NCBI RefSeq assembly: GCF_003334785.1
Contig: NZ_QOWV01000071.1
Reading direction: 5' to 3' (one strand)
Source: Escherichia coli
Lineage (GTDB): Bacteria; Pseudomonadota; Gammaproteobacteria; Enterobacterales; Enterobacteriaceae
Length of the DNA: 816 nucleotides
The notes beneath the pieces were generated by a model. The model did no database searches, was not told the DNA's origin, and saw only the letters and a list, made by a program, of their open reading frames with translations. Each line of letters begins with the position of its first letter. The first letter of the stretch is position 1. Shown here in pieces: positions 1 through 816 of this stretch. A program made the position numbers and the translations under genes.

Positions 1-17
1 CTCCTTCTAAATTAGAC

Positions 18-21
18 GGAG
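18..21 (+). promoter_or_regulatory. Putative Shine-Dalgarno (GGAG) for tnpA
   Basis: GGAG at 18-21 lies 8 nt upstream of ATG at 30 and 5 nt upstream of the alternative TTG at 27. Confidence 0.45.
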
Positions 22-29
22 TTCTATTG

Positions 30-464
30 ATGGATAAACCTACAGACTGGCGCTCCGGAACCCGCCGGATATTTTCTAATGAATTTAAACTTCATATGGT
101 TGAACTGGCTTCGAAACCAAATGCCAATGTTGCACAACTGGCCCGGGAACATGGCGTTGATAACAACCTGATTTTTAAATGGCTACGCCTCTGGCAAAGA
201 GAAGGACGTATTTCTCGTAGAATGCCTCCAACTATTGTAGGCCCTACAGTATCACAATCTTTTCCGGCCTCTCCGACTCTGGTTCCAGTGGAACTTATCG
301 ACACCCCGCGCTGTGCTACAGATGCTCCTGCTCCGGGGGCATTATCAGTTGCTTGTGCAGCTTCCTGCCATGTGGAATTCCATTACGGTAAAATGATGCT
401 GGAAAATCCTTCACCAGAGCTGCTCACGGTGTTGATCCGTGAGCTGACCGGGAGGGGACGATGA
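30..464 (+). CDS. tnpA: IS66-family accessory protein OrfA/TnpA, a small helix-turn-helix protein
   Basis: ORF track gives 27..464 from a TTG; I prefer the ATG at 30 because of its spacing from GGAG at 18-21. A predicted HTH segment (NVAQLAREHGVDNNLIFKWLRLW, about nt 123-190) resembles transposase-type HTH domains. The gene sits immediately upstream of, and overlaps, the IS66 Orf2-like gene, and its size (~145 aa) fits IS66 orfA. The reading frame stays open back to base 3, so a start upstream of the window cannot be excluded. Confidence 0.8.
   Translation: MDKPTDWRSGTRRIFSNEFKLHMVELASKPNANVAQLAREHGVDNNLIFKWLRLWQREGRISRRMPPTIVGPTVSQSFPASPTLVPVELIDTPRCATDAPAPGALSVACAASCHVEFHYGKMMLENPSPELLTVLIRELTGRGR
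450..457 (+). promoter_or_regulatory. Shine-Dalgarno (GGGAGGGG) for tnpB, embedded in the 3' end of tnpA
   Basis: Purine-rich GGGAGGGG at 450-457 lies 3-5 nt upstream of the tnpB ATG at 461. The tnpA stop TGA (462-464) overlaps that ATG as ATGA, the classic arrangement for translational coupling. Confidence 0.6.
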
Positions 465-811
465 TTTCACTCCCATCAGGTACCCGTATCTGGCTCGTTG
501 CCGGCGTTACTGATATGCGTAAATCCTTCAATGGTCTGGGGGAGCAGATACAGCATGTGCTGGATGATAACCCCTTCTCCGGTCACCTGTTTATCTTCCG
601 TGGCCGACGGGGAGACACGATTAAAATCCTGTGGGCTGATGCTGATGGTCTGTGCCTGTTCACCAAACGCCTTGAGGAAGGTCAGTTTATCTGGCCTGCG
701 GTGCGTGACGGTAAGATATCCATTACCCGCTCGCAACTGGCAATGCTCCTCGATAAGCTGGACTGGCGTCAGCCAAAAACATCCCGCCTTAACGCACTGA
801 CAATGTTGTAA
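461..811 (+). CDS. tnpB: IS66-family accessory protein OrfB/TnpB (IS66 Orf2-like; unrelated to the IS200/IS605 RNA-guided TnpB)
   Basis: Complete 116-aa ORF with ATG at 461 and TAA at 809-811. Motifs characteristic of IS66 Orf2-like proteins are recognised from memory: N-terminal IWLVAGVTDMRKSFNGL, central GHLFIFRGRRGDTIKILWADADGLCLFTKRLEEGQF, and C-terminal SITRSQLAMLLDKLDW. A strong SD precedes it and it overlaps the upstream gene by 4 bp. Confidence 0.9.
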   Translation: MISLPSGTRIWLVAGVTDMRKSFNGLGEQIQHVLDDNPFSGHLFIFRGRRGDTIKILWADADGLCLFTKRLEEGQFIWPAVRDGKISITRSQLAMLLDKLDWRQPKTSRLNALTML

Positions 812-816
812 AAAAC

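Follow-up and report, generated by a model that had tools for sequence, protein, structure and literature searches.

The flagged edge of an 816-nt Escherichia coli sequence is the tnpB 3′ end of an ISEc47-type IS66-family element

Introduction

For IS679 of E. coli pB171, the IS66 member that has been studied experimentally, all three genes are reportedly needed for transposition. In IS679 the DDE transposase is TnpC, and the accessory proteins are TnpA and TnpB. Translational coupling yields the three proteins in IS66 elements as a group, with translation of a distal ORF depending on prior translation of the proximal one, as described in a passage of PMC3469429 that cites Han et al. 2001 (J Bacteriol 183:4296).

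Here, an 816-nt stretch of E. coli DNA (the window) was analysed, whose last positions, 790–816, had been flagged in an initial annotation as stopping just before the expected tnpC gene of an IS66-family element. By description, the locus resembles IS679 in the order of its three genes (tnpA-tnpB-tnpC), in its 8-bp target duplication and in the translational coupling proposed for it; the three-gene requirement for transposition was reported for IS679. If ISEc47 behaves like IS679 and other IS66 members, its genes would be carried on one transcript and translated by coupling, with TnpC acting as the catalytic transposase and TnpA and TnpB as accessory proteins.

Elements that match the window at 100% identity across their tnpA-tnpB part have a tnpC with the annotation 'IS66-like element ISEc47 family transposase', which is the PGAP product name of WP_000080164.1. 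No difference from ISEc47, as named by PGAP, was detected. The element is, by annotation, ISEc47, and represents already known biology.

Results

The window closes in the tnpB-tnpC spacer

The features of the window are listed in Table 1. On the plus strand, positions 801–816 read caatgttgTAAaaaac, in which the TAA at 809–811 is followed by AAAAC (812–816) and then by the end of the window. The initial annotation had described exactly this, a tnpB stop with only 5 nt left, and both the sequence and the ORF at 461..811 bear it out. The interval 790–816 holds the six sense codons with which tnpB closes, its stop codon and the opening 5 nt of the spacer between tnpB and tnpC. No further feature was found inside this interval, and none of the bases of the window belong to tnpC.

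Table 1. Coordinates of the features in the 816-nt window
Feature	Position	Strand	Evidence
tnpA, small HTH accessory protein, 144 aa	30..464	+	ORF; PGAP CDS WP_001421699.1, same coordinates in identical copies; Pfam HTH_Tnp_1 2.7e-10
ATGA, tnpA stop/tnpB start overlap, coupling signature of IS66 elements	461..464	+	sequence gacgATGAtt; ORF coordinates
tnpB, IS66 accessory protein, 116 aa	461..811	+	Pfam TnpB_IS66 3.5e-36; NCBIfam IS66_TnpB; PGAP WP_000624688.1 in identical copies
tnpB final codons (...L N A L T M L)	790..808	+	translation
tnpB stop TAA	809..811	+	sequence; ORF
AAAAC, first 5 nt of the 30-nt tnpB-tnpC spacer; A815-C816 open the predicted spacer stem	812..816	+	identical copies
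Left part specific to the ISEc47/ISEc43 lineage	1..354	+	ISEc23-like relatives match only from window 355 on (megablast)

The TnpB protein matched the profiles that mark an IS66 tnpB (an IS66 Orf2-like accessory protein; PF05717 / NF033819), namely NCBIfam IS66_TnpB at 119.1 bits (cut-off, 50) and Pfam TnpB_IS66 at E=3.5e-36, indicating that the TAA is the end of a real tnpB and no chance codon. For TnpA, the scores fell below both NCBIfam cut-offs for IS66 TnpA (IS66_ISRel24_TnpA, 66.8 bits vs 74; IS66_access_TnpA, 61.9 vs 150), which accounts for its PGAP label of just 'transposase'; the only Pfam match was to the generic HTH_Tnp_1. The two genes have the layout of IS66 elements: a small tnpA comes first, and its stop codon shares the ATGA at 461–464 with the start codon of tnpB. 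This overlap fits tnpA-tnpB translational coupling. A sequence search for relatives of TnpB with a solved structure returned none (best E=0.8), and a literature search on the mechanism of IS66 TnpB returned genome surveys and no mechanism papers.

In a megablast search of complete E. coli genomes, the window was 100% identical over its 816 nt to 14 records, comprising chromosomes and plasmids, and 323 records matched at 99% identity or above. Plasmid matches were also observed in Salmonella, Klebsiella, Shigella and others. The ten 100%-identical copies that were opened represent one per distinct strain among the 14 records, and these are referred to below as the identical copies.

These results indicate, with high confidence, that 790–816 is the tnpB 3′ end, the TAA and the spacer start of an ISEc47-type IS66-family element, that the window is an arbitrary cut covering IS positions 57–872 of 2,541 bp, and that the copy very probably runs on into tnpC at 842. 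The flagged edge is a window-edge effect on an ordinary known element and no biological oddity.

A different reading, in which the window end is a real sequence boundary (for example, a contig or region that was ended at a gene boundary, or an assembly broken within a repeat) and the source record has nothing downstream, is less likely. The window is only 816 nt long, begins 29 nt before the tnpA ATG and stops 5 nt past the tnpB stop. In addition, four IMG/VR provirus contigs (L028, L034, L077 and L086) end precisely where the tnpB stop codon does, indicating that cuts at gene boundaries occur in public data. However, the sequence itself carries no boundary mark, and its final bases carry on the normal spacer.

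The complete element in the identical copies

The element that surrounds the window in the identical copies begins 56 nt before it and continues for 1,669 nt beyond it, and has the length (2,541 bp), the 8-bp duplications and the GTAAGCG ends of ISEc47. The order of its parts is the left inverted repeat (GTAAGCGT...), tnpA, tnpB, the 30-nt spacer, tnpC and the right inverted repeat (...ACGCTTAC), the last of which the initial annotation had proposed to locate downstream. The two terminal repeats begin GTAAGCG, have the stretch GTAAGCGT in common and are alike at 17 of 30 positions. They were missed by the automated repeat search (only 8 terminal bases are perfect) and were read instead from the flanks of an insertion into an impB/umuC-like gene, with confirmation by script.

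This insertion is on plasmid NZ_AP022179.1, where the impB/umuC-like gene is interrupted by the element; at one junction ...CCCGATGG is followed by GTAAGCGTAAAGCC..., and at the other ...GTTGACGCTTAC is followed by CCCGATGG.... Perfect 8-bp target duplications were observed at eight insertions and were different at each (CTTTCAAT, CCCGATGG, AGATATGC, GCTTATCC, ACTTATTT, AATAAGAC, TTTACTAC and AACAGGAT). Four of the 2,541-bp copies, located at different sites, are base-for-base identical, and two more differ by 1–2 nt. The presence of identical full copies at different sites points to recent transposition, and the occurrence of identical copies at many sites with fresh 8-bp duplications suggests that ISEc47 is probably still mobile.

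Whether passenger genes are carried, a question that had been raised for the window, could be answered in the identical copies: the 2,541 bp hold only tnpA, tnpB and tnpC, and no passenger genes. When the whole element was scanned for promoters and terminators, the counts did not exceed those of shuffles (2 vs 1.9 and 2 vs 2.3); in the same scan, the promoter calls of which are not trustworthy, no terminator was found between tnpB and tnpC. No Rfam family matched anywhere in the element.

tnpC follows tnpB and is intact in most identical copies

The expectation that tnpC begins a short way after tnpB held in all ten identical copies, and the gene has the full IS66 transposase domain set. Its ATG lies 30 nt after the TAA, at window-equivalent 842; past position 816 these copies read TCCTGACCGCATTATAAAAACGGCC and then the tnpC ATG, and the source copy would read TCCTGACCGCATTATAAAAACGGCCATGAGTCAG... 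after the same position. The gene spans 1,614 nt and encodes 537 aa, in agreement with the initial prediction of an ORF of ~500 aa with an IS66 transposase domain (DDE_Tnp_IS66, 3e-97, in the identical copies). The Pfam domains found were LZ_Tnp_IS66, zf-IS66, DDE_Tnp_IS66 (PF03050; 3.1e-97, full length) and DDE_Tnp_IS66_C, and NCBIfam transpos_IS66 (NF033517) scored 450.5 bits against a cut-off of 180. Seven full-length elements were translated, six of which match the window exactly, and in all seven the reading frame was stop-free through 537 aa; the complete 537-aa WP_000080164.1 is listed by PGAP in nine of the ten identical copies.

The predicted start signal, in contrast, did not hold. 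A Shine-Dalgarno sequence and an ATG had been anticipated within ~10–25 nt of the tnpB stop, whereas the spacing is 30 nt and no canonical Shine-Dalgarno sequence was found before the tnpC ATG (…AAAAACGGCCATG).

Judged from sequence identity to these copies, the start of tnpC very probably follows the window, and the tnpC of the source copy is probably, although not certainly, intact. Nine of the ten identical copies have an intact tnpC, two of which (L003 and L101) share an insertion site in different strains and are not independent. The remaining copy, from isolate AF58, is interrupted by the IS110-family element ISEc45 at IS position ~2323, late in tnpC. Among the 99.6–99.8% identical set, one copy has an intact, ISEc43-type tnpC, and one 99.6% copy carries ISEc45 in tnpC at the same position as in AF58.

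For the 99.8% copy on plasmid NZ_CP054233.1 (L005 3812–3813), an IS26 end, GGCACTGTTGCAAA, was observed one base past the tnpB TAA (TAAA followed by GGCACTGTTGCAAA). This IS26 removes the spacer and all of tnpC, and a TEM-1 region adjoins it. In addition, a second copy in NZ_AP022179.1 has IS1203 inside tnpB. The initial caution that a copy may be intact, truncated or interrupted was thus justified by the ISEc45 insertions in the 100% and 99.6% copies and by the IS26-cut 99.8% copy.

That the source copy is itself decayed, with tnpC truncated or interrupted by another mobile element after 816 to leave a non-autonomous IS, is nevertheless improbable. Such copies exist, as the ISEc45, IS26 and IS1203 insertions demonstrate, but nine of the ten 100%-identical copies are intact. 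The IS26 junction (TAAAGGCA) is excluded for this window, the last bases of which (TAAAAAAC; 813–816, AAAC) match the intact spacer.

Several observations were made on other interrupted or partial copies. ISEc45 occupies one and the same position of tnpC in an ISEc43-type copy (L007 ~5267) and an ISEc47-type copy (L103 ~4267), with the junction GAAAGAAAAATT followed by CTTATGACC, and further megablast matches break at IS 2323 (H71 and H84), as if an IS110-family element were targeting a specific site in IS66 tnpC. In L065, 24 nt past the tnpB stop, a sequence starting with GTAAGCGGCTCG replaces the 3′ part of the spacer and resembles the terminal repeat of another IS66-family element, suggesting that one IS66 element has inserted into the spacer loop of another. 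The chromosomes of BL21, HB101 and other B or laboratory strains hold a 159-nt right-end remnant of this IS type (IS 2383–2541; H85–H95) at 98.7% identity, annotated as 'transposase domain-containing protein'; yoeF adjoins it in the sole listed record with a named neighbour (H90). As for the four provirus contigs that end at the tnpB stop, their ends are most likely provirus boundaries placed where genes end, and the window edge may have arisen through the same type of artefact.

ISEc47 is related to ISEc43 and ISEc23-like elements in a mosaic manner

For ISEc43, another IS66-family element, identity is at least 99.6% over the left 1,400 nt, a stretch that takes in the whole window region, and the length and gene layout are the same; one copy (L006) has two differences from the window within the window region. 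In contrast, the 3′ half of tnpC is only 84–91% identical, indicating that ISEc47 and ISEc43 are recombinant or mosaic relatives.

For the ISEc23/ISEc8-like elements, found on E. coli plasmids and O157 chromosomes, identity is 93–96% from tnpB through the spacer to tnpC, with the same spacer length of 30 nt and a tnpC of 537 aa, whereas the left end and most of tnpA (IS 1–410) are only ~60% identical. The ISEc23-like matches start at window 355 or IS position 411, and by segment the identity is ~60% over IS 1–410 and 86–96% over the rest. The TnpA proteins also differ in annotation, that of the ISEc23-like elements being labelled 'IS66-like element accessory protein TnpA' in PGAP, whereas the window TnpA lies below the NCBIfam cut-off. 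By these comparisons of sequence, ISEc47 is a mosaic relative of the ISEc23-like elements also, and the mosaic pattern (L011 and L006) suggests recombination between IS66 family members.

A predicted hairpin in the spacer contains the tnpC start codon

The 30-nt spacer is kept in length and is in frame with both genes in ISEc47, ISEc43, ISEc23, ISKox1, ISEsp1 and others; in all clade members (L002 4461–6455; L011, L012 and L013–L019), tnpB and tnpC share a frame and are parted by the TAA and 10 sense codons. A more distant relative (L020) has a 29-nt spacer, which is out of frame. For the clade whose TnpB is 69% identical (ISEc8-like), the spacer is different and shorter (~20 nt) and has its own GAGG Shine-Dalgarno sequence.

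A conserved stem-loop was predicted in the 30-nt spacer (L002 4815–4847, window-equivalent 815–847), with the tnpC ATG in its 3′ arm, and lies almost entirely outside the window. Examples of its arms are TCATAACCGC and GCGGTTATGA in ISKox1 and CATGGCCG and CGGCCATG in L031. When 13 distinct spacers were aligned, 87.4% of cells paired, compared with 17–43% when the partner was slid by 1–3 columns. The covariation score exceeded all 500 shuffles, resting mainly on one pair (AU 5, GC 4, GU 2, CG 1), and RNAalifold recovered the same helix. Single-sequence folds in the relatives gave -12.6 to -16.3 kcal/mol (z -2.9 to -4.9), whereas the ISEc47 spacer gave only -7.5 kcal/mol (z -1.56), the weak z being due to an A.C mismatch. 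This mismatch may loosen the hairpin control in ISEc47. The sample of spacers is small and closely related, and the hairpin is regarded as a lead, not a result. A hairpin at the tnpC start of the 69% clade, plausible by eye, was rejected because it was no better than shuffles (z -0.6 to -1.3).

As a tentative model, the spacer hairpin of the ISEc23/ISEc47/ISKox1 clade would pair the tnpC start codon, which has no Shine-Dalgarno sequence, and translation of tnpC would then depend on the stem being melted by a ribosome at the end of tnpB. The predicted stem (5′ arm from 815) begins three nt past the UAA, close enough for a ribosome that terminates there to open it.

TnpB and TnpC might alternatively be fused by read-through of the TAA, as the same frame and the lack of any other stop in the 30-nt spacer of ISEc47, ISEc43, ISEc23, ISKox1, ISEsp1 and others would permit, but this is hardly credible: TAA terminates translation efficiently in E. 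coli, the L020 spacer of 29 nt is out of frame, the 69% clade has a different spacer of ~20 nt with a GAGG Shine-Dalgarno sequence, and the hairpin explains the conserved length equally well. That tnpB and tnpC share a frame probably follows from the conserved length of the hairpin and does not point to read-through.

Discussion

For annotation, the tnpA-tnpB pair in the window is to be read as part of the 2.5-kb ISEc47 and not as a stand-alone gene pair. This assignment has little wider importance, ISEc47 being a common annotated IS on the plasmids and chromosomes of E. coli, Salmonella, Klebsiella and their relatives.

The spacer hairpin, if the model proposed for it is true, would explain in concrete structural terms the translational coupling that has been proposed in IS66 elements, and offers a small lead on how these elements may limit transposase synthesis.
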